In this document: in pieces, positions 25,762-35,377 of the stretch
Layout: every line of letters starts with the position of its first letter
Numbering within the stretch: the stretch's first letter is position 1
NCBI GenBank assembly: GCA_041675325.1
Contig: JBAYUG010000004.1
Location: forward strand, 15,759 to 79,758
Source of the DNA: Candidatus Kapaibacterium sp.
GTDB lineage: Bacteria; Bacteroidota; Ignavibacteria; Tepidaquicellales; Tepidaquicellaceae
Reading direction: 5' to 3'
DNA: 64,000 bases
Made by a program: the position numbers and the translations under genes
The notes under the pieces: model-generated
Seen by the model: only the letters and a program-made list of their open reading frames with translations
Told to the model about the DNA's origin: nothing
Database searches by the model: none

Positions 25762-26271
25762 ATGTTATCAAAAAAACTTGAAGACGCAATAAACAAACAA
25801 ATTAACAAAGAACTTTATTCCGCATATTTCTATCTTGGTATGTCAGCTTACTGCAACTCGGTTGACCTGGACGGGTTTGAAAATTTCTTCTACGTTCAGT
25901 ATCAGGAAGAAACATTTCATGCAATGAAACTATACAACTACGTTCTTGAAAGAAGCGGAAGTGTTGTCTTATCGCAGATTGACACTCCTCCGCAGAGTTT
26001 TAAATCTGCTCTGGATGTATGCGAGCAAACCTATGAACACGAAAAAGTAGTCACAAAATCAATCAACGACCTTATGGACATTGCAATAAAGGAAAATGAC
26101 CATGCAACATCGAGCTTCCTTAAATGGTATGTGGATGAACAGGTTGAAGAAGAAGCAACAATCTCAAAACTTGTCAACAGAATGAAGCTTGTCGGTGATA
26201 ACGTCGGCGGACTTTTTATTATCGACCAGGAATTAAAGGCGCGTGTCTTTACGCCTCCTGCGACAGCATAA
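25762..26271 (+). CDS. ftn: Non-heme ferritin
   Basis: 169 aa. INKELYSAYFYLGMSAYC and QEETFHAMK match ferroxidase-centre ligand positions. Confidence 0.9.
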   Translation: MLSKKLEDAINKQINKELYSAYFYLGMSAYCNSVDLDGFENFFYVQYQEETFHAMKLYNYVLERSGSVVLSQIDTPPQSFKSALDVCEQTYEHEKVVTKSINDLMDIAIKENDHATSSFLKWYVDEQVEEEATISKLVNRMKLVGDNVGGLFIIDQELKARVFTPPATA

Positions 26272-26298
26272 GAAAAACATCTTTTATAAATACAAAAG

Positions 26299-26329
26299 AC
26301 TGATCCGCCGCGGCGGACCAGCCTTTTTT
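26299..26329. terminator. Bidirectional GC-rich hairpin terminator (ferritin / MarR convergent)
   Basis: ctgatccgccg/cggcggaccag stem with one mismatch, an A-run before and TTTTTT after. Confidence 0.75.
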
Positions 26330-26349: not shown

Positions 26350-26760
26350 CTATAAGCAATCTTCCAGTTTATGAAAGAGTTTAATCGTATCCTTTTTCTC
26401 TGAGACAGTTAGTTTTTTCTGAATGGTTTGTTCACACTCGTTGAGCACAACCTCAATTTTCTTGCGTACACGTGTCCCTTTTGGAGCAAGTTTAAGAACC
26501 ACATTTCTTCTGTCTTCTTTTGAAATTTCCTGATCAAGATATTTGTTTTTAATAAGCTTTTCAACAACGCGGCTTCCCCTCGAGACCGAAAGCCCCATAT
26601 TTTTTGACAGAGCGTTGCAGTTGCAGGGCTGTCCCGGTCTCATTGCAAGTATACCCCTGTACTCGGCAGGAGAGAGATTAAACTCAAGCCTTATTGATTC
26701 TTCCTTATCAAGGCATTTGCTTTTTATTCCGATTATGAGGTCTATTATTCTGTCTGCCAT
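26350..26760 (-). CDS. MarR-family transcriptional regulator
   Basis: 136 aa with a winged-HTH pattern (LSKNMGLSVSRGSRVVEKLIKNKYL). It is the last gene of the cytochrome/sulfur-transporter operon. Confidence 0.85.
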   Translation of the reverse strand: MADRIIDLIIGIKSKCLDKEESIRLEFNLSPAEYRGILAMRPGQPCNCNALSKNMGLSVSRGSRVVEKLIKNKYLDQEISKEDRRNVVLKLAPKGTRVRKKIEVVLNECEQTIQKKLTVSEKKDTIKLFHKLEDCL

Positions 26761-26794
26761 TGATTATTAATTTTAGAGTTTATTATAATTGTTT

Positions 26795-27985
26795 TTAGCA
26801 GCCGCCAATTATTCTTTTTGTTTTCTTATCGTCAGTGTTTATAGACTTTTTGCTTGCTTTAATAAGAGTGGGTAATTGTGCCCGTGCTTTTTCTCTGAAT
26901 ATATAAGTTGCCTGCATTTGTCTTGACACAGTATCGGGTTTTTTAAAATTCATTATTTCTTCTTTGAATGCATCCATGCCGCCTTTTAAGATATACAGGT
27001 TTTTATATCCCAGCTCGTTTGCAATGTATGCTAATCCTTTTTCCTCCTGTTCATTGTTTGCAATGATAATATTTTCTATTCCTTTCGTAGAAAATTTCTT
27101 ATTTATGTCTTTTCCGAATAAATCATCAGTCGTCCAGTTTGAAGATTTTGGAAGAGTTAATTCTTTGTATTCGTCTTTTGTTCTGAAATCATAAATTTGA
27201 ATGTTCTTGTCGTTATCAAGAAGTCTGAAAGCAAGCTCATCAGAATCCATGACTTCATACTTGATATTGTTTATTACCGCAGGGTTTACGGATTCTTCTT
27301 TTAAATTAACCTGTCTTTCGGGAAACGCAAAAGCTGAAAGCCCAATTAATAAAACAACAACCGCCAATCCGTAGTATAATTTTAAAGGCTTCAAATCTTC
27401 TGTTAAGTATCCAACGTTTTTCTTTTCAATCATAGTAGTAAAAATAAATGCCGCTACTGCCATGAATACCATCATAAAAGCAAACATACCCTGAGAAACT
27501 CCTATCAAGTCAAAGAATCTAATCTCCCCCCATGCACCCGCTTTGTATAACCCTTCAAACAAAGGATATCCTTCGGCAAATACGAATACCCCTATAAAAG
27601 AACCTGCGACAAAGATCATTGCATCTATTTTTCCTATTGCCGCAGCACATAAGCTTGTGCCCGGACAGAATCCTCCGATGACAAATCCAAGCCCCATTAT
27701 CAATCCTCCGACAATCGCCGACCAGATAAATGTCGGGTTAACATAAACCAAACTTAAATCCAGAAGACCATAATGACCAAGTATTACTACACCCATCATC
27801 GCAGTTATTCCTCCCGTGAAAAAAACTCTCAGAACCGTAAAATCATATCCGTAAAATAAACCGACAAGTTTCTTAGAGGTTGAAAATCCTGCCTGCTCGA
27901 GTATAAACCCAAAAGCAATTCCAATAATTAATGCAACTATCAGGTTTAATTCGTTTCCAATTATATCAGGTACTAATGGTGCCAT
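26795..27985 (-). CDS. YeeE/YedE-family sulfur-compound transporter half fused to a rhodanese-like domain
   Basis: I moved the start to ATG 27985, with AAGGAG 6-11 nt upstream. GFCPGTS motif, several TM segments, and a C-terminal rhodanese-like fold (IQIYDFRTKDEY...ILKGGMDAF). Confidence 0.85.
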   Translation of the reverse strand: MAPLVPDIIGNELNLIVALIIGIAFGFILEQAGFSTSKKLVGLFYGYDFTVLRVFFTGGITAMMGVVILGHYGLLDLSLVYVNPTFIWSAIVGGLIMGLGFVIGGFCPGTSLCAAAIGKIDAMIFVAGSFIGVFVFAEGYPLFEGLYKAGAWGEIRFFDLIGVSQGMFAFMMVFMAVAAFIFTTMIEKKNVGYLTEDLKPLKLYYGLAVVVLLIGLSAFAFPERQVNLKEESVNPAVINNIKYEVMDSDELAFRLLDNDKNIQIYDFRTKDEYKELTLPKSSNWTTDDLFGKDINKKFSTKGIENIIIANNEQEEKGLAYIANELGYKNLYILKGGMDAFKEEIMNFKKPDTVSRQMQATYIFREKARAQLPTLIKASKKSINTDDKKTKRIIGGC

Positions 27986-28001
27986 TATTATACTCCTTAT
28001 C

Positions 28002-28529
28002 TTATATCCAAAGTTTTCTGAAAAAATAAGCAAAGGCATACCCTCCGCCAAATATCGCCATCATTGTTATAATGCCGCCTGCTGACATTACTGCCATACC
28101 GCTTAATGCCGCACCGCTCGTACATCCCCGCCCGAGCTGTGCTCCAAAGCCGAACAAAAACCCTCCGATTAATGCTCCAATTATTCTAACACGTGTAGTT
28201 ACTTTCTGCGGATGCTCAAGTTTTAAACTCAATCTGTTAGATACCAGCCCCGAACCAAACGCACCGATTAAAACACCAATCACTTCGAACACAAGCCAGC
28301 TTTTCAGAGGATTATCTGAATGTTCAGTTTTGTACTCTTCATAATAATGTGTGTTTTCTGTGTGAGCAGGTGCAAGAGTACTTACTACCGAAACAACAGC
28401 ACTTTTGACAGCTCCGCTTGCTCCCAATCCTCTGCCTGTTATAAATATTGTTACAAGCAGAAGCAGCCCTAATAAAAATCCCGCAAGATAAGGATTCATG
28501 TATTTTGATTCTTTCATATTATATTTCAC
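28002..28529 (-). CDS. YeeE/YedE-family sulfur-compound transporter half
   Basis: 175 aa with TM segments and the GRGCTSGAALSG motif. The start is ambiguous (28529, 28517 or 28499). Confidence 0.85.
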   Translation of the reverse strand: MKYNMKESKYMNPYLAGFLLGLLLLVTIFITGRGLGASGAVKSAVVSVVSTLAPAHTENTHYYEEYKTEHSDNPLKSWLVFEVIGVLIGAFGSGLVSNRLSLKLEHPQKVTTRVRIIGALIGGFLFGFGAQLGRGCTSGAALSGMAVMSAGGIITMMAIFGGGYAFAYFFRKLWI

Positions 28530-29178
28530 TACTTAATGTTTCCGAATTTTCTTTCTTTATTTCTTCTGTATCGTGTTCTATTTCTTCATATCCCGTTAGC
28601 ATTGCCTTGAGGTTTGATGTCACGGTTGTTCCTGTTGTTATTAAGTAAAGATGTGTAACAATAAATGCCGCAAGAAGTATAGCCCCCGCTGTGTGAACAA
28701 TAGCAATTATTTCAAGAGAATCTATATTGATGCTTGCTATCGTCTGGTTTTGCGGATACCTGTAGAACATGTATAAAAGTCCTGAGATAACCATTATCGG
28801 AATAACGAGTATTTTCAGTCCGAAGTAAACAAGCTTCTGCAGCGGGTTTAATTTGCTTAGCACACTTTTTTTGGTCGGATGACTTGCATTCTTAAAAATG
28901 CCGAACAAGTAATAATTTAACTGAGCTTTTATGTTTGTGAATGTCGGAACATATTGCCTCCATTCACCTGTTGTAAAATGCCAGAACACTGCAAACACAA
29001 TTAATATGATAAAAGCGTATGCGGCAATGTTGTGATATGTAACAGCATTCTCAAAACCGAAGAATGAAAAAGTGCCGTGGATTTCAAACCCTGTAGCTGC
29101 AAGAAAAAATATCAGCAATGCCTGCATCCAGTGCCAGAAACGTTCAAATGATTTATATATTAATACAGTTTTTGACAT
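28519..29178 (-). CDS. Membrane di-heme cytochrome b (PF01292-like, hydrogenase/FDH gamma-subunit type)
   Basis: 219 aa with four TM segments. ERFWHWMQALLIFFLAATG carries the conserved His residues. Confidence 0.85.
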   Translation of the reverse strand: MSKTVLIYKSFERFWHWMQALLIFFLAATGFEIHGTFSFFGFENAVTYHNIAAYAFIILIVFAVFWHFTTGEWRQYVPTFTNIKAQLNYYLFGIFKNASHPTKKSVLSKLNPLQKLVYFGLKILVIPIMVISGLLYMFYRYPQNQTIASINIDSLEIIAIVHTAGAILLAAFIVTHLYLITTGTTVTSNLKAMLTGYEEIEHDTEEIKKENSETLSSEI

Positions 29179-29180
29179 AC

Positions 29181-30752
29181 TTAAATGTTTCTCCTTTGTT
29201 TTCTTGTTGACCTGATTCTAAGTGTCCCGTGAATTACTATTCCTAAAAAAGTGATCGCTATGATAGCTGTACCGGAATAGTCAACATATTTATTGTAATC
29301 TCTTCCTGGTATATAAAAATCTTTTAAGTTGGCTATTCTGCTGTCGTTTCTTGTGTGGCAGTCTGTGCACTGCAATGATGAATCTTTTGACGAAACCATG
29401 TGATTTATTGGCCAGTACATTTCAGTTTTTATAAACGAAATTTTTCCGCTGAACGGCAGATCAACTTCTTTCATTCCAACCTCTGAAGCTCTTTGCCAGT
29501 TAAAATCTTTCCAAAGCGCCCCTTCTCCTGTTTTGTCCGAAAATAATTTCGGCTGTATTAATGTTTTATACACAGGGTCGTAAGGTTGTTTTGCTTTGTG
29601 AATTTTTACAGGTATAATTTTCGATTCTCTGTCGTTATAAGAGCCTAATAATTTATTCAACACAAGCGGGTTTGTCGTATCGCTGATTGTGTCCCCAAGC
29701 AAATAATGCTGGGCATTTCCGTTAAACCATATATAATCAGGTTTTAAATTTTTACCCCACTTAAATGTTCCTTTAATTGAAAGGTATGTATGGTTTCCGT
29801 CTGCGTCATCTTCTTCGTAAGGCTCACCGTTCTTCAGTTTTCCGGCTGTTGACCAGTCCCACTCCATCTTAGTTGCATTAACTTTTGCGTAAACAGGAAT
29901 GTGGCATGTCTGGCAGGCAACCTTCATGTTGTGTTCGTTTAAAACTGAATTGCTGTGAGGACTTTCTGTATGACATTGCTCACAGGTTGAGCGGTCTCTG
30001 TTCATTGAAGACAAAGAATAAACCTTCCCAAGCATTTTATGTTTCTCTGTAAGGTGACAATCAATACACTGTAAGTTCTTTCCATCTGTTGCCATGTGAA
30101 CGTCTGTTGTTTTTTCAGGCGCAAACATGGATTCTTCAAGGTCCCCGTGTTTTACGTTGTTTCCGCCGCCTCCGTAAAAATGACACACACCGCAATTTGA
30201 CCTTTTAGGCTTGCCTACGCCCTGTGCAATGCTGCTAAGATTTAATTTAGGGTTGGGGTATCCTGATAATTCTTCCCCCTTGGCGTATGTCTCTGTGTTG
30301 TCGTGGCAGACAAGACAGTCAACATTATTTTCATCTGTAAATGCAAAACTCTTGTCTGTCATTCCAAAACCAATATGGCATTTAGCACAGCTTTGCTCGT
30401 TTCCGTCCACACCTATACAGAAATTATTAATAGCATTCTTCTTTCCTATTGATATAATGCCTCTTCCTTTCACATACTCCTGCCTTTCCCAGTTCCAGTG
30501 GCTTGAGTTCATTACCTCTGTATGTCTGTCTGTATGACAGGTGTTGCATACAGCCGTTACCTCTTGGGGTGTAGCAAAATTCTTTTTCAGTACATCAAAT
30601 TTTGAGTGGTCAACAGAAGAAATATATTTTTCCGAATACTTCTCTTTTAACTTGTCAACCGTACCAACATCATGTTCTTTCGGTACAAGGAGTAAAATTG
30701 CAGATATTATGAATAGTATAAACAGCGTAACAGATATGAAGACTTTTTTCAT
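29181..30752 (-). CDS. Octaheme c-type cytochrome, tetrathionate-reductase (OTR) family
   Basis: 523 aa with exactly eight CXXCH motifs: CNTCH, CAKCH, CLVCH, CGVCH, CIDCH, CEQCH, CQTCH, CTDCH. It has an N-terminal anchor and a C-terminal TM helix. Confidence 0.85.
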   Translation of the reverse strand: MKKVFISVTLFILFIISAILLLVPKEHDVGTVDKLKEKYSEKYISSVDHSKFDVLKKNFATPQEVTAVCNTCHTDRHTEVMNSSHWNWERQEYVKGRGIISIGKKNAINNFCIGVDGNEQSCAKCHIGFGMTDKSFAFTDENNVDCLVCHDNTETYAKGEELSGYPNPKLNLSSIAQGVGKPKRSNCGVCHFYGGGGNNVKHGDLEESMFAPEKTTDVHMATDGKNLQCIDCHLTEKHKMLGKVYSLSSMNRDRSTCEQCHTESPHSNSVLNEHNMKVACQTCHIPVYAKVNATKMEWDWSTAGKLKNGEPYEEDDADGNHTYLSIKGTFKWGKNLKPDYIWFNGNAQHYLLGDTISDTTNPLVLNKLLGSYNDRESKIIPVKIHKAKQPYDPVYKTLIQPKLFSDKTGEGALWKDFNWQRASEVGMKEVDLPFSGKISFIKTEMYWPINHMVSSKDSSLQCTDCHTRNDSRIANLKDFYIPGRDYNKYVDYSGTAIIAITFLGIVIHGTLRIRSTRKQRRNI

Positions 30753-30951
30753 TGATATAATTTAAATGTAATAATGTAGTCGTTTATTATTATTTGCTTA
30801 ACCTCAGGTTCTTTTTCTGGGGAAAAACACCTGACTTTATCAAAGACAGAACGTTTGCTAAACACAACAGAATAATTTACTATTTATAATTAATTGTTAT
30901 TAGCAAGTTATAAAGATTAAACCGTAAAGTCAATATCATATTTTTTCAACT

Positions 30952-31093
30952 TAACCGCGTAAACCAGCTTCATCCGTGTAAATCCATGCTCTATTGTGCA
31001 CTACAATCAGTTTAGTTAATGTTTGCTCTTTGAAATAAAAAAACGTTAATTATCCGCGTAAATCTGCTTCATCCGCATAATCTATGTTCTATT
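30952..31093 (+). repeat. Two copies of module A (30952-30995 and 31051-31093)
   Basis: taaccgcgtaaaccagcttcatccgtgtaaatccatgctctatt and tatccgcgtaaatctgcttcatccgcataatctatgttctatt. Confidence 0.9.
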
Positions 31094-31126
31094 ATGCACC
31101 ACATCCTATTTCCATCCTTGGGATTG

Positions 31127-31747
31127 CTATGAAGACTCTTTCATCACTGTTATATGTGCTGTTTTAGGATTGTCTGTTATTTCTTTTGTGATGCTTAGCT
31201 TGCTTTGGTGTGCAAGTCCTCTCAGCCCTCCTTTTGAAACGTAAGATTTAAAATTGCGGTAGTGCTCTCTTCCCGCTACAAACTCAACAATACCGTTAAT
31301 CTTGTCTGTAAATCCTCCGGGTCTCGGCACAAGATAATCAACAATTATTATATTTTCGGCATGCTTCGAAAGAAGCTTCAGAAGAGGGACCCTATCGGAT
31401 TCATTTATTTCATGAATAACATAAGAAAGAACGGCGTAATCATATTTTATGTCACTGCCTTTAAGATATGTATATGCATCCGCATGAATGTACTCTATTT
31501 TTTCCGAAAGTAGTTTGCACAGCTTTTTTTTTGCTGTGTCAATGTTCCTTATTGATAAGTCTATACCAGTATATTTTCTGTATTTATCCCAAAGGCGGAA
31601 CGCCATTCTTCCTGTTCCGCATCCTACATCAAGAATCACGGAATCGTTACTAATAATTTCTTTTACAGTTTCAAAAGCCTTGTCCTGATTAGGAGCAATC
31701 ACTTTGTCGTAAAACATTCCGTCATACCAGTGATTCTTGTTCTTCAT
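31127..31747 (-). CDS. Class I SAM-dependent methyltransferase
   Basis: Motif I, ILDVGCGTGR. Contiguous with the upstream gene. Confidence 0.85.
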   Translation of the reverse strand: MKNKNHWYDGMFYDKVIAPNQDKAFETVKEIISNDSVILDVGCGTGRMAFRLWDKYRKYTGIDLSIRNIDTAKKKLCKLLSEKIEYIHADAYTYLKGSDIKYDYAVLSYVIHEINESDRVPLLKLLSKHAENIIIVDYLVPRPGGFTDKINGIVEFVAGREHYRNFKSYVSKGGLRGLAHQSKLSITKEITDNPKTAHITVMKESS

Positions 31748-32383
31748 TTACAAATTTACTATTTCGTTAAAATAATCTTTGTCAAGATGTTTCGGTGTAT
31801 ATACTTCGTCACGTCTGTTTATGTTTCTTGTGAAAGCTCGCAGATGATTTTCAGATGCTCTTTTCAGATTGTTATAGACCATAGCTATATCTTTGTTGTC
31901 TGTGTCTTTTACAGCGTCCATTAAGTCTTTAATATCAATCTCTTCTATCTCGGCTGCTGCTTTCAATGCGTCAAGAGCCGATTTGTTTCCCTGATTAAGC
32001 AAAGATAAATAAAGGTTCTTAATTTTTTCATTCTTAAACTCACCCGTTTTCAGACCGCTCACGGGATTTACTATTCCATACTTGTTAAGAAGAGATTCAA
32101 TCGCATCCATATGCTTTTGTTCTGCTTCTTTTATATTGCCAAACGGTCTTAATCCCCACTTGTCATACATGGTTATGTAAAAATCCCTTGCCATCTTTTC
32201 TTCCTCAATCATATACAGCATTTCTTTTTCTTCTTCTGCCGATACATCCTGTTTCGGCAAATCAATAGCATAATAACACGAATGCTTATCTTGGGCTTTT
32301 GCTTCACTGATAAATATATTGCCGTTCAAAAAACCTGCAAATATTATTATTGTAAAGATGCTTGCTAAAATGTTTGTTTTCAT
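31748..32383 (-). CDS. Secreted DUF2202 / ferritin-like domain protein
   Basis: Signal peptide. EEEKMARDFYITMYDKWGLRPFGNIKEAEQKHMDAI is the DUF2202 pattern as I remember it. Confidence 0.72.
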   Translation of the reverse strand: MKTNILASIFTIIIFAGFLNGNIFISEAKAQDKHSCYYAIDLPKQDVSAEEEKEMLYMIEEEKMARDFYITMYDKWGLRPFGNIKEAEQKHMDAIESLLNKYGIVNPVSGLKTGEFKNEKIKNLYLSLLNQGNKSALDALKAAAEIEEIDIKDLMDAVKDTDNKDIAMVYNNLKRASENHLRAFTRNINRRDEVYTPKHLDKDYFNEIVNL

Positions 32384-33478: not shown

Positions 33479-35377
33479 ATGAAATACTTGAACTCTATCT
33501 CGTTTTTAACATTGTTGATGTTTGTAAATATTTCTCTGGCGCAAATGACACCTTTGCCCACTCAGACATCTTCTATTTTTTCCGGCTCAGGCAACTGTGC
33601 AACTTGTCATACCGGAAACGGAATTGTGCTTACAGAAAACGGTGTTGATATTTCCCCTATCACTCACTGGCGTTCCTCTATGATGGGTAATTCATCTAAG
33701 GACCCTTTCTGGCGTGCAATCGTTGCAGAAGAAATTCACGAGCATCCTCAGTTTCAGTTTATAATTGAGAGCACTTGTACAAAATGTCATGCACCTATGG
33801 GACACAGACAGGCAATTCAGAACGGTGACTCAGGATACACTATGTCACAGATGAAAGCAGACCCCCTCGCAAACGATGGTGTAAGTTGTACATCCTGCCA
33901 TCAGATTAAAAATACAAACTTCGGTTCTTCCTCAAGCTATACCGGCGGATATAACATTACTACTGAACGAATTATTTACGGTCCGTATCCGAATCCCCTT
34001 GTACAGCCGATGATTACATTTGTTAACTATACCGCCGTTCATTCTACATCAATGAATAATTCAGAGCTTTGTGCGACCTGTCATACATTGTTTACACCTA
34101 CTGTAAACTACTCAGGACAGATTGTGGGCTCTTTTCCAGAACAAACACCTTATATCGAATGGAAGAATAGCAATTATAAAACTTATAACGTTCCTTGTCA
34201 GACATGTCACATGCCTATAACTAATACACCGATAGATATATCTTCTATCCCTCCCTTCGATACAACAAAGCGAAGCCCGTACTGGAAACACCTTTTTGGT
34301 GGCGGCAACACTATGCTAAATAGAATCATGAGAAATAATATTGATTCACTACAACTTTCTGCTTCTGCTTCAAACTTTGATACTACATTGGTCTATACAG
34401 AGAGAATGCTTAAGGAAACCGCCGTGAACCTTACTATTACACCGGCGTACAGCTCTGGCTTTATAAATATTGGCGTTACAGTTGAAAACCTCGCTGGTCA
34501 TAAATTACCAACAGGAATTCCGTACAGAAGAATGTGGGTTCATTTTAAAGTCAAGGACCAAAGTAACAATATAATCTTTGAATCCGGAAACTGGGATACT
34601 CAGGGTGAAATCATAGGGCTGGATTCTTTATATGAACAGCACTATTCTGAAATTACAAATACGAATCAGGTTCAGATTTACGAAGGTGCCTTTAAAGATA
34701 TTAATGGTAACTTTACGTTTAACCTATTAAGATCAGCCGCTTTCTTAAAAGATAACAGACTTCCCCCTAAAGGTTTTAACACTTCTCATCCAAGCTATGA
34801 CACAATAGCGATTGTAGGCGGTGCTGTCAGCGACACTAACTTTAACAGACAAGGAACAACTCAGGGCACGGGCAGGGATATTATTTATTATAAAGTGCCT
34901 GCTGTAACCGGGTCACAGTACACGATTTCTGCTGAACTCTGCTACCAAACTATTCCGCCCCGGCTTGTTACTTATATACAGGGTATAAGTTCTCCCGACA
35001 TACAAAAGTTTGTATCCCTTTATAACACAGCTGATAAGTCTCCTGTAATCATGAAAACTGTATCCGTTCCATTCTTAACAGGCGTTAATCCTATCGGTAA
35101 TATTACACCCGCATCATTTAAACTTTATCAGAATTATCCGAATCCGTTCAACCTCTCAACAAAAATTAGATTTGATGTACCAAACGGTAATAAATTTATT
35201 AGTCTGAAAATATATGATGTGCTTGGAAAAGAAGTCCGGACGCTTGTTGCGGGATCTTTGATACCGGGTTCTTATGAAACAGATTTTGATGCCAAAGACC
35301 TTTCTTCGGGAATGTTCTTCTGTGTTTTGCGCTCAGAAAGTTTTTACGAAATCAAACGTATGATGTTTATTAAATAA
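33479..35377 (+). CDS. Pentaheme c-type cytochrome with T9SS C-terminal sorting domain
   Basis: 632 aa with a signal peptide and five CXXCH motifs (CATCH, CTKCH, CTSCH, CATCH, CQTCH). The C-terminus (YQNYPNPFNLSTKIRFDV...GMFFCVL) is T9SS-CTD-like. Confidence 0.85.
   Translation: MKYLNSISFLTLLMFVNISLAQMTPLPTQTSSIFSGSGNCATCHTGNGIVLTENGVDISPITHWRSSMMGNSSKDPFWRAIVAEEIHEHPQFQFIIESTCTKCHAPMGHRQAIQNGDSGYTMSQMKADPLANDGVSCTSCHQIKNTNFGSSSSYTGGYNITTERIIYGPYPNPLVQPMITFVNYTAVHSTSMNNSELCATCHTLFTPTVNYSGQIVGSFPEQTPYIEWKNSNYKTYNVPCQTCHMPITNTPIDISSIPPFDTTKRSPYWKHLFGGGNTMLNRIMRNNIDSLQLSASASNFDTTLVYTERMLKETAVNLTITPAYSSGFINIGVTVENLAGHKLPTGIPYRRMWVHFKVKDQSNNIIFESGNWDTQGEIIGLDSLYEQHYSEITNTNQVQIYEGAFKDINGNFTFNLLRSAAFLKDNRLPPKGFNTSHPSYDTIAIVGGAVSDTNFNRQGTTQGTGRDIIYYKVPAVTGSQYTISAELCYQTIPPRLVTYIQGISSPDIQKFVSLYNTADKSPVIMKTVSVPFLTGVNPIGNITPASFKLYQNYPNPFNLSTKIRFDVPNGNKFISLKIYDVLGKEVRTLVAGSLIPGSYETDFDAKDLSSGMFFCVLRSESFYEIKRMMFIK

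Follow-up and report, generated by a model that had tools for sequence, protein, structure and literature searches.

An octaheme OTR-family cytochrome encoded with a cytochrome b and a split YeeE-type channel bearing a cysteine-tipped arm: a candidate module for quinol-linked reduction of sulfur compounds

A 64,000-nt stretch of DNA from Candidatus Kapaibacterium sp. (assembly GCA_041675325.1, contig JBAYUG010000004.1, positions 15,759 to 79,758), called the window below, carries five minus-strand open reading frames (ORFs) that, according to the ORF listing and its translations, fill positions 26350-30752, and encode, in this order, an octaheme cytochrome c of the tetrathionate reductase (OTR) family, a cytochrome b, two YeeE-related proteins (YeeE1 and YeeE2) and a MarR-like regulator (Table 1). 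OTR was reportedly described at the structural level in 2004, and its cellular role is said to be uncertain since in purified form it acts on tetrathionate, nitrite and hydroxylamine alike, reducing each of them. An earlier reading of the window, based on the sequence only, had listed five tightly packed genes with spacings of 2, -11, 16 and 34 nt from OTR to MarR, a layout confirmed by the ORF coordinates. The 11-nt overlap hinges on a GTG start of YeeE1 at 28529, an ATG at 28517 giving a +1-nt gap instead; for YeeE2, the mechanical ORF begins upstream with a TTG at 28051, and the ATG at 27985 is the start used here. The sole strong terminator-like hairpin of the minus strand in this region is placed after the MarR-like gene, and a hairpin scan of the operon strand found no comparable one between the five genes. 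Spacing, terminator and synteny (see below) indicate that the five genes form one real operon.

The first gene product matches model positions 1-440 of TIGR04315 with 586.3 bits (cut-off 375), and the structure of the Shewanella oneidensis OTR (1SP3) with E=1.8e-131 over residues 53-469 and about 50% identity across the catalytic domain, which upholds its proposed membership of the OTR family rather than of the HAO or ONR families. Among the other identities considered (HAO, ONR, NrfA, MccA), NrfA chains reached only E ~6e-4 over 43 residues, and the other multiheme models remained far under their cut-offs. All 16 cysteines of the eight CXXCH motifs are invariant among 71 homologues, as are K104, N109, C112 and K201, which face Lys56, Asn61, Cys64 and Lys153 of 1SP3 in alignments including the Shewanella sequence and two divergent relatives; we take these to be the lysine ligand of heme 2, at the active site, and its neighbours. 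The roles of this lysine and of the surrounding residues in the Shewanella enzyme were reportedly addressed by Mowat et al. in 2004. The presumed lysine ligand, whose presence the earlier reading had left to be checked, is thus conserved, and the motifs GK(K)N (Lys), NNFC (Cys) and VKHGD (Lys) are common to both proteins.

In contrast to the Shewanella type, which is soluble and encoded alone, the OTR of the window has membrane helices at both of its ends, a histidine within the second one, a cytochrome b, and the channel-and-arm module described in the next section. Both helices had been noticed beforehand, and both are real. The N-terminal segment, which probably stays uncleaved, would act as a signal-anchor, and the C-terminal helix (GTAIIAITFLGIVIHGTLRI), followed by RSTRKQRRNI, carries a histidine (His508) present in 71/71 homologues. 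This helix occurs only where a cytochrome b gene follows, and is absent from the OTRs devoid of this partner (the g24 type, the Shewanella type and the f6 short type).

The cytochrome b scores 99.7 bits against PF01292 (gathering threshold 30.1), with four hydrophobic helices. Its closest NCBIfam model is PhsC (NF011582), whose equivalog cut-off of 204 lies well above the 100.7 bits obtained, and the protein is, judging from this score, a relative of PhsC and not an orthologue. Six of its histidines are invariant (16, 34, 49, 100, 162 and 176), the last two standing 14 residues apart in the last helix, and H16, H49, H162 and H176 reproduce the pattern of ligands on helix 1, on helix 2, and twice on helix 4. 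In the FdnI/HyaC/HydC anchors of formate dehydrogenase-N and [NiFe] hydrogenase, a four-helix cytochrome b of the PF01292 type is associated with a periplasmic redox subunit that has a single C-terminal membrane helix, and His508 recalls His305 of Wolinella HydA, presumably required for quinone reactivity. In contrast to these systems, the partner is here a multiheme cytochrome c and not an Fe-S subunit, and electrons probably flow outward from quinol. The cytochrome b is probably the menaquinol-oxidising anchor of the OTR, and the membrane tethering proposed by the sequence-only reading, with a cytochrome b of its own, agrees with the anchors present and with the adjacent PF01292 gene. A similar arrangement has been proposed for Thermosulfurimonas dismutans (TDIS_1882/1883), in which a periplasmic OTR would be linked to the membrane via a neighbouring multi-helix cytochrome b (PMC4911364); the comparison is by description only, and this description makes no mention of a YeeE/PmpAB pair, a rhodanese-like domain or a GGC arm.

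Table 1. Coordinates of the operon and of the features discussed in the text (positions in the window)
Feature	Position	Strand	Basis or remark
OTR-family octaheme cytochrome c	29181-30752	-	523 aa, 8 CXXCH, TIGR04315
N-terminal signal-anchor of OTR, residues 1-23	30684-30752	-	MKK + 20-residue hydrophobic stretch (4-23), no A-x-A cleavage site
Lys104 codon, aligned with Lys56 of Shewanella OTR	30441-30443	-	GKKNA by translation; invariant
C-terminal transmembrane (TM) helix of OTR with His508, then basic tail, predicted cytoplasmic	29214-29273	-	translation
Four-helix cytochrome b (FdnI/HyaC/PhsC type)	28519-29178	-	219 aa, PF01292
YeeE1, PmpA-like C-terminal half of YeeE/YedE channel	28002-28529	-	175 aa, PF04143
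YeeE2 (half-channel, helices, rhodanese-like domain, arm)	26795-27985	-	396 aa from ATG at 27985
YeeE2 core, PmpB-like N-terminal half, residues 1-147	27545-27985	-	PF04143, invariant GGFCPGT
Two extra TM helices of YeeE2, residues ~165-220	27326-27493	-	AF2 helices 165-191, 201-220
Rhodanese-like domain without catalytic Cys, residues ~240-345, probably periplasmic	26951-27268	-	PF00581
Basic disordered C-terminal arm ending Gly-Gly-Cys, residues 382-396	26798-26842	-	INTDDKKTKRIIGGC, then stop
MarR-like regulator, lineage-specific last gene	26350-26760	-	136 aa, MarR-family models
Terminator-like hairpin closing the operon	26294-26327	-	15-bp stem, 7 G-C pairs, T-rich tail after
Upstream intergenic region, presumed promoter/operator	30753-31126	-	374-nt gap before OTR start

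The split YeeE channel and its cysteine-tipped arm

YeeE1 covers model positions 175-309 of PF04143 (80.7 bits), and YeeE2 positions 4-157 (39.9 bits). On these matches the two proteins are the C- and N-terminal halves of one YeeE, split in the manner of PmpA and PmpB, the half arrangement reported by Dahl's group being the basis for this assignment (PMC11582611). Each half retains one invariant central cysteine (C136 in the GRGCTSG motif of YeeE1, where R134 is invariant as well, and C107 in the GGFCPGT motif of YeeE2), at the positions of Cys293 and Cys91 of the full-length YeeE/TsuA (6LEO). The TsuA/YeeE models NF041049 and NF052577 gave 23.9 and 44.1 bits, below their cut-offs of 645 and 400. 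Both halves also weakly match YedE/FdhT models of selenium metabolism (39 and 29 bits), as might be expected of a selenium/tellurium oxyanion module whose OTR would reduce selenite or a related chalcogen for import by a YedE-like channel. This we regard as highly improbable, since these scores are far under the curated cut-offs (350), the tail ends here in a cysteine, no selenium-utilisation genes lie nearby in the window, and the variant of the module linked to a Psr/Phs-type enzyme (see below) points to sulfur.

With 396 residues, against about 130 in a typical PmpB, YeeE2 extends the classical half-channel by two helices, by a rhodanese-like domain and by a GGC-ended arm, and lacks a YeeD/TusA-like partner. 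The domain matches PF00581 with 35.1 bits (threshold 22.2), and its profile retrieves 6MXV from the PDB at 4.3e-11; in an AlphaFold 2 (AF2) model it reaches a predicted local distance difference test (pLDDT) above 90, all Foldseek matches being rhodaneses. Its catalytic position is, however, occupied by an alanine (IIIANNEQEE) aligned with the cysteine of Sud, and across about 60 homologues this column shows no cysteine conservation. The domain is, from its sequence, a domain of rhodanese homology and not a canonical sulfurtransferase, and an annotation of YeeE2 as 'rhodanese' should not be taken to mean an active enzyme.

Beyond the domain and a further helix, YeeE2 ends in a Lys/Arg-rich tail (...KKTKRIIGGC) whose last three residues (G394, G395, C396) are invariant in an alignment of 43 sequences with 32-63% identity, and for which the AF2 model gives a pLDDT of 35-50. 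A GGC terminus, followed by zero to two residues, is found in just one of the 3360 ORFs of at least 100 aa in the genome of the window, which is YeeE2 itself, and in 121 of the 2946 ORFs of the collected OTR loci.

On which side of the membrane do the domain and the arm lie? The StYeeE crystal structure places the N-terminus outside, with H1-H6 arranged as two elements of the type TM helix, short helix, TM helix, H6 ending outside (PMC7449682). The helices of the AF2 model of YeeE2 (11-34, 40-43, 49-71; 87-104, 108-116, 120-147) reproduce this H1-H6 pattern, and K and R residues are most abundant in the loop that joins the two extra helices (mean of 3.5 K+R against 0.9 D+E). Free versions of the domain and tail are lipoproteins or N-terminally signal-anchored proteins. 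Since a StYeeE-like half would end outside, two helices joined by a K/R-rich loop are added to it, and free homologues are exported, we infer that the rhodanese-like domain and the arm lie in the periplasm; a cytoplasmic domain was considered, and is less likely on account of the exported free homologues and of the two extra helices that follow the outside-ending half.

Spread and variants of the cassette

The neighbourhood of OTR genes was surveyed in 61 related genomes, in a scan with one genome per species, in 401 genomes across the phylum, and in a scan of metagenomes whose matches were ranked on the Shewanella sequence; as the OTR homologue listing comprised the 120 closest clusters, all with at least 64% identity, distant contexts come from the metagenome scan. 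The order OTR, cytochrome b, YeeE1, YeeE2-rhodanese-GGC is kept in about 100 independent loci from at least 8 phyla. The genetic link to the split YeeE pair, previously seen at this single locus, is thus borne out, and on this synteny the linkage between OTR, cytochrome b and split YeeE is genuine, and beyond chance. An OTR scoring above the cut-off is present in 33 of the 61 related genomes, and YeeE1 and YeeE2 lie directly downstream in all 30 loci returned. One genus of a sister family has a shorter, lipoprotein-like OTR without C-terminal helix or cytochrome b, and retains the YeeE pair. Full-length YeeE2-rhodanese proteins are found in 35 of the 61 genomes, beside OTR wherever the contig extends (the contig of G001 ends before the OTR position), the remaining 26 having neither this protein nor OTR.

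In the one-genome-per-species scan, about 63 of the 80 loci keep the four-gene order, and several others stop at contig ends; their titles include Ignavibacteria, Bacteroidia/Bacteroidales, Acidobacteriota, Planctomycetota (Pirellulaceae), Armatimonadota (Chthonomonadia), Delongbacteria and LCP-89, among others. A cultured organism, Saccharicrinis sp. FJH62, is among the carriers of the complete cassette (L065, NZ_JBHJHQ010000002.1). In the 401 genomes, no fused homologue with 42% identity or more is farther than about 3 kb from an OTR. One apparent stand-alone YeeE2-rhodanese (L196) was set aside as a decayed cassette with an N-terminal OTR fragment fused in frame: at L196:5898-7073 (G443), a single ORF joins this fragment (GKKNAFNNFCIGV...) to YeeE2-rhodanese-GGCT, the remains of a cassette shortened by deletion.

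In a tree of 106 OTR sequences, a clade of 78 (SH-aLRT 98) has a GGC-tailed rhodanese partner at every locus, fused to YeeE2 in 65 loci, and encoded as a free small lipoprotein in the other 13, whose active-site cysteine is intact (IVYCKKGKRS) in addition to the GGC tail. The contrast with the soluble Shewanella OTR, first drawn in the earlier reading, extends to its whole type, since within 6 kb of the OTR genes at L111-L129 there is no gene for a cytochrome b, a YeeE or a rhodanese. In basal lineages (L153, L181, L199 and the f22 family), OTR is accompanied by cytochrome b alone. The f22 family belongs to the same phylum, has small genomes (1.6-3.1 Mb), and supplies 22 of the 62 genomes with an OTR in the sample of 401; none of these 22 has a YeeE2-rhodanese match, and its loci L191-L193 (G186, G266, G150) show an OTR and a 201-aa cytochrome b, with no GGC-tailed protein nearby. 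In a separate clade (L136 and L179), a soluble OTR is followed by a second multiheme cytochrome fused to cytochrome b, and then by the YeeE pair; the fusion ORFs (L179:7287-9701, L136:7267-10155) are joined via a helix with the same xHGxLR motif. Two proteins are inserted in variants from Bacteroidales, namely an Alginate_exp-like porin of the outer membrane, and a tandem-rhodanese lipoprotein with GGC at its end.

The YeeE pair also occurs at a locus without OTR (L198:2365-11537, G354), downstream of a PhsA/PsrA-like molybdoenzyme, a PsrB-type Fe-S subunit and an NrfD/PsrC-like subunit. YeeE1 is followed there by a YeeE2 of 196 aa and by two rhodanese-like proteins, both signal-anchored and Cys-less, which have poly-Lys linkers and end in PEGGC, and the locus closes with a Crp-type regulator and two more rhodaneses. 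Judging from this arrangement, the channel-and-arm module would serve periplasmic sulfur reductases of two unrelated cofactor types, which suggests a general accessory of such enzymes.

Proposed substrate, electron flow and fate of the sulfur

In the reading that we favour, with a probability of roughly 0.6, the operon would encode a respiratory reductase coupled to a sulfur importer. Menaquinol would be oxidised by the diheme-type cytochrome b, and its electrons would be handed to the eight hemes of OTR, which would lie in the periplasm, kept against the cytochrome b by its C-terminal helix, with the invariant histidine, and by its N-terminal anchor. The Lys-ligated active-site heme would then reduce a sulfur compound with an S-S bond, the most likely reaction being that of tetrathionate to two thiosulfate, with polysulfide or another polythionate as possible substrates. 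The PmpA/PmpB-type pair would form a thiol-lined channel, whose PmpB half would extend its Cys-less rhodanese-like domain and its flexible, Lys-rich GGC arm into the periplasm, where both would capture sulfur species at the reductase, and hand them to the channel for import. Sidedness, direction of the electrons, identity of the substrate and formation of a complex are what we infer here from sequence and gene context, and import of the sulfur product, put forward by the sequence-only reading as well, is plausible.

What the OTR reduces in the cell is addressed by several observations. The otr gene of a marine acidobacterium increased 36-fold upon addition of tetrathionate to sediment microcosms, and with a potential E0' of +198 mV for the tetrathionate/thiosulfate couple (PMC8528874), reduction of tetrathionate by menaquinol would be favourable. 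A sulfur compound is favoured over a nitrogen compound as the natural substrate because all conserved partners handle sulfur, and because the same module accompanies a Psr/Phs-type molybdoenzyme; for the same reasons, the nitrite or hydroxylamine reduction that the earlier reading had kept as an option is disfavoured, and unlikely to occur in cells. For the operon to encode a nitrite/hydroxylamine reductase, its adjacency to sulfur genes would have to be functionally meaningless, which is hardly credible given a gene order conserved in at least 8 phyla, a near-perfect co-occurrence, and the finding of no conserved nitrogen-cycle gene in the neighbourhood of OTR in the loci from other genomes; the promiscuity of OTR toward nitrogen and sulfur substrates in vitro (PMC13510729) speaks for this possibility nonetheless.

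This promiscuity is also one of several points that weigh against our proposal of a quinol-linked sulfur reductase with import. Co-transcription of the genes is deduced from their spacing, the terminator and synteny. The sidedness of YeeE2 is drawn from homology and charge bias, and the TM part of its AF2 model has a pLDDT of 50-75. Neither sequence or profile searches of the PDB with YeeE2, nor Foldseek with the AF2 model, retrieved the StYeeE structure 6LEO, so that the YeeE assignment of this protein rests on Pfam and on the helix pattern. No gene for a YeeD/TusA-like cytoplasmic acceptor is present in the operon, and YeeE of the E. coli type requires YeeD (PMC11582611); the function of PmpAB itself is poorly defined. 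The pairs of OTR and cytochrome b without YeeE/GGC partner (f22 loci L191-L193; L153, L181, L199) imply, moreover, that the YeeE/GGC module is not obligatory for the enzyme core.

Could electrons flow the other way? Cytochromes b of the FdnI/HyaC type normally reduce quinone, and the operon might serve to oxidise sulfide, polysulfide or an arm-bound persulfide, with electrons passing via cytochrome b to menaquinone, a possibility to which the related OTR and cytochrome b pair of the small-genome f22 family could also be linked. We consider it very unlikely: menaquinone cannot be reduced by oxidation of thiosulfate to tetrathionate (+198 mV), the YeeE/GGC module is missing from the f22 loci, and a tblastn search of the genome with a PhsA-like query found no PhsA/Psr-like molybdopterin sulfur reductase, sulfur-oxidation genes not having been searched for.

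A role in sulfane-sulfur homeostasis or detoxification rather than in respiration has also to be weighed. Periplasmic polysulfide or persulfide would in this case be sensed and removed, the OTR acting as a polysulfide reductase, and PmpAB adjusting the level of cellular sulfane sulfur. Polysulfide reduction by menaquinol is, however, thermodynamically uphill, and a quinol-linked octaheme enzyme with a diheme-type cytochrome b would represent a heavy investment for such a task. Such a role would fit the small redox-type regulator that always adjoins the cassette (MarR, Cys-rich MerR-like or Crp/Fnr), and the best single-sequence PDB match of the rhodanese domain, although a weak one (E=0.024), is Sud, the polysulfide-sulfur transferase of Wolinella. 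Uptake of zero-valent sulfur is reported for PmpAB-like proteins, as is their presence in operons of the stress type (PMC11582611), but otr responds to tetrathionate in situ (PMC8528874), and we rate detoxification as quite unlikely. The proposed respiratory module also resembles the Psr system of Wolinella succinogenes, in which a rhodanese-fold protein of the periplasm (Sud) is encoded with a quinol-linked sulfur reductase, and the Psr/Phs-like locus L198 uses the GGC-armed module. In contrast to Sud, with its canonical active-site cysteine, the domain of the window has none, its only conserved extramembrane cysteine being at the extreme C-terminus.

This terminal cysteine invites a further explanation, unlikely in our estimate, in which the membrane-anchored OTR branch would not act on a free ion, but on sulfur bound covalently, as S-thiosulfonate, persulfide or polysulfide, to the cysteine of the GGC arm. 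The arm would take up sulfur from tetrathionate or polysulfide, OTR would reduce the adduct, and the arm would pass what sulfur is left into the PmpAB channel with its two cysteines. S-thiosulfonates form readily from tetrathionate and thiols, and several features accord with a carrier function: the GGC end, on a disordered arm rich in lysine, is invariant; no partner but this arm is common to all members of the 78-sequence clade, including the loci that have a small lipoprotein rhodanese and no channel; and Cys112 of OTR is invariant beside the active site. The covalent adduct remains putative, however, as the arm could instead bind or guide anions electrostatically, and the Shewanella OTR acts on free substrates without such a partner. 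The tail is also reminiscent of the carboxy-terminal GGCGG of SoxY, whose cysteine binds the sulfur substrate (PMC6067878), both ending in Gly-Gly-Cys on a flexible arm within a sulfur-redox cluster, that of the window being of predicted periplasmic location. In contrast to SoxY, the arm is here borne by a rhodanese fold tied to a transporter, with no SoxY fold or SoxZ, in a reductive context. No sox genes lie near the operon in the window, and the resemblance concerns a possible way of working, not membership of that system. If covalent loading were true, the operon would represent a second swinging-arm sulfur system, independent of Sox, a reductive counterpart of SoxY that couples respiration to sulfur group translocation.

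To return to the reduction of a free S-S-bonded compound with import of the sulfur, the cross-phylum partnership with sulfur-handling proteins represents the strongest genomic argument so far for a sulfur compound as the natural substrate of OTR, and it singles out the parts concerned: the C-terminal anchor helix, the cytochrome b, the split YeeE channel and the cysteine-tipped arm. Ignavibacteria, Bacteroidia and Acidobacteriota from sediments, sludge and aquifers commonly carry the cassette, and these are habitats in which tetrathionate, thiosulfate and polysulfide are key intermediates of the sulfur cycle. The literature search found no description of the full cassette, of the membrane-anchored clade with the helix histidine, or of GGC-armed rhodanese-like proteins. 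The combination, presented as undescribed in the sequence-only reading, is to this extent new; the pairing of OTR with cytochrome b had already been published (PMC4911364), and OTR itself, PmpAB, and rhodanese helpers of sulfur reductases are known as well.

Regulators, upstream region and flanking genes

The last gene of the operon remains just under the thresholds of the Pfam models MarR (24.8 vs 27 bits), MarR_2 (20.7 vs 24.6) and HTH_27 (22.1 vs 22.2), and matches twelve NCBIfam models of the MarR type at E values of 1e-12 to 7e-3, all under cut-off, several MarR-family models lying between 1e-5 and 1e-12, so that placement in the MarR superfamily is reasonable, with no orthologue identified. 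Located 34 nt after YeeE2, it is kept downstream only in close relatives (G001, G007, G011, G012 and G043), with gaps ranging from about 37 nt to 2.5 kb. In some other Ignavibacteria a MarR-type gene lies upstream of OTR instead, and in other lineages a Cys-rich MerR-like protein or a Crp/Fnr regulator is found by the cassette. From this distribution the conserved core comprises four genes, and MarR, which the earlier reading had counted as part of the module, is probably a local, lineage-specific transcriptional regulator. In 17 loci (e.g., L058:6388-6840), the gene directly upstream of OTR encodes a regulator of the MerR family whose C-terminal extension is rich in cysteine (…CWEHIQCPAEQREKCPAF…GCW…), and which may sense metal or sulfur to control the cassette.

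In the intergenic region upstream of OTR, sigma-70-like matches are weak (e.g., 30963-30935), a promoter scan giving 27 matches against 23.5 in shuffled sequence, that is no excess. As palindromes are weak as well, the region offers no candidate operator. On the minus strand (30953-31072) it contains an imperfect direct repeat, GGATGAAGC(A/T)G(A/G)TTTACGCGG(A/T)TAA, in two copies of about 25 nt, about 95 nt apart, which may be a dispersed repeat or sites of a regulator.

The genes directly upstream (31127-32383, minus strand) encode a class I SAM methyltransferase and a secreted DUF2202 (ferritin-like) protein, and a ferritin gene (25762-26271) converges on the 3' end of the operon; none of these neighbours forms a recurrent cluster in the OTR loci of other genomes. 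Further upstream, on the plus strand (33479-35377), lies a gene for another multiheme cytochrome c, with a C-terminal Por_Secre_tail sorting domain (PF18962, 30.3 bits) of the type IX secretion system (T9SS).

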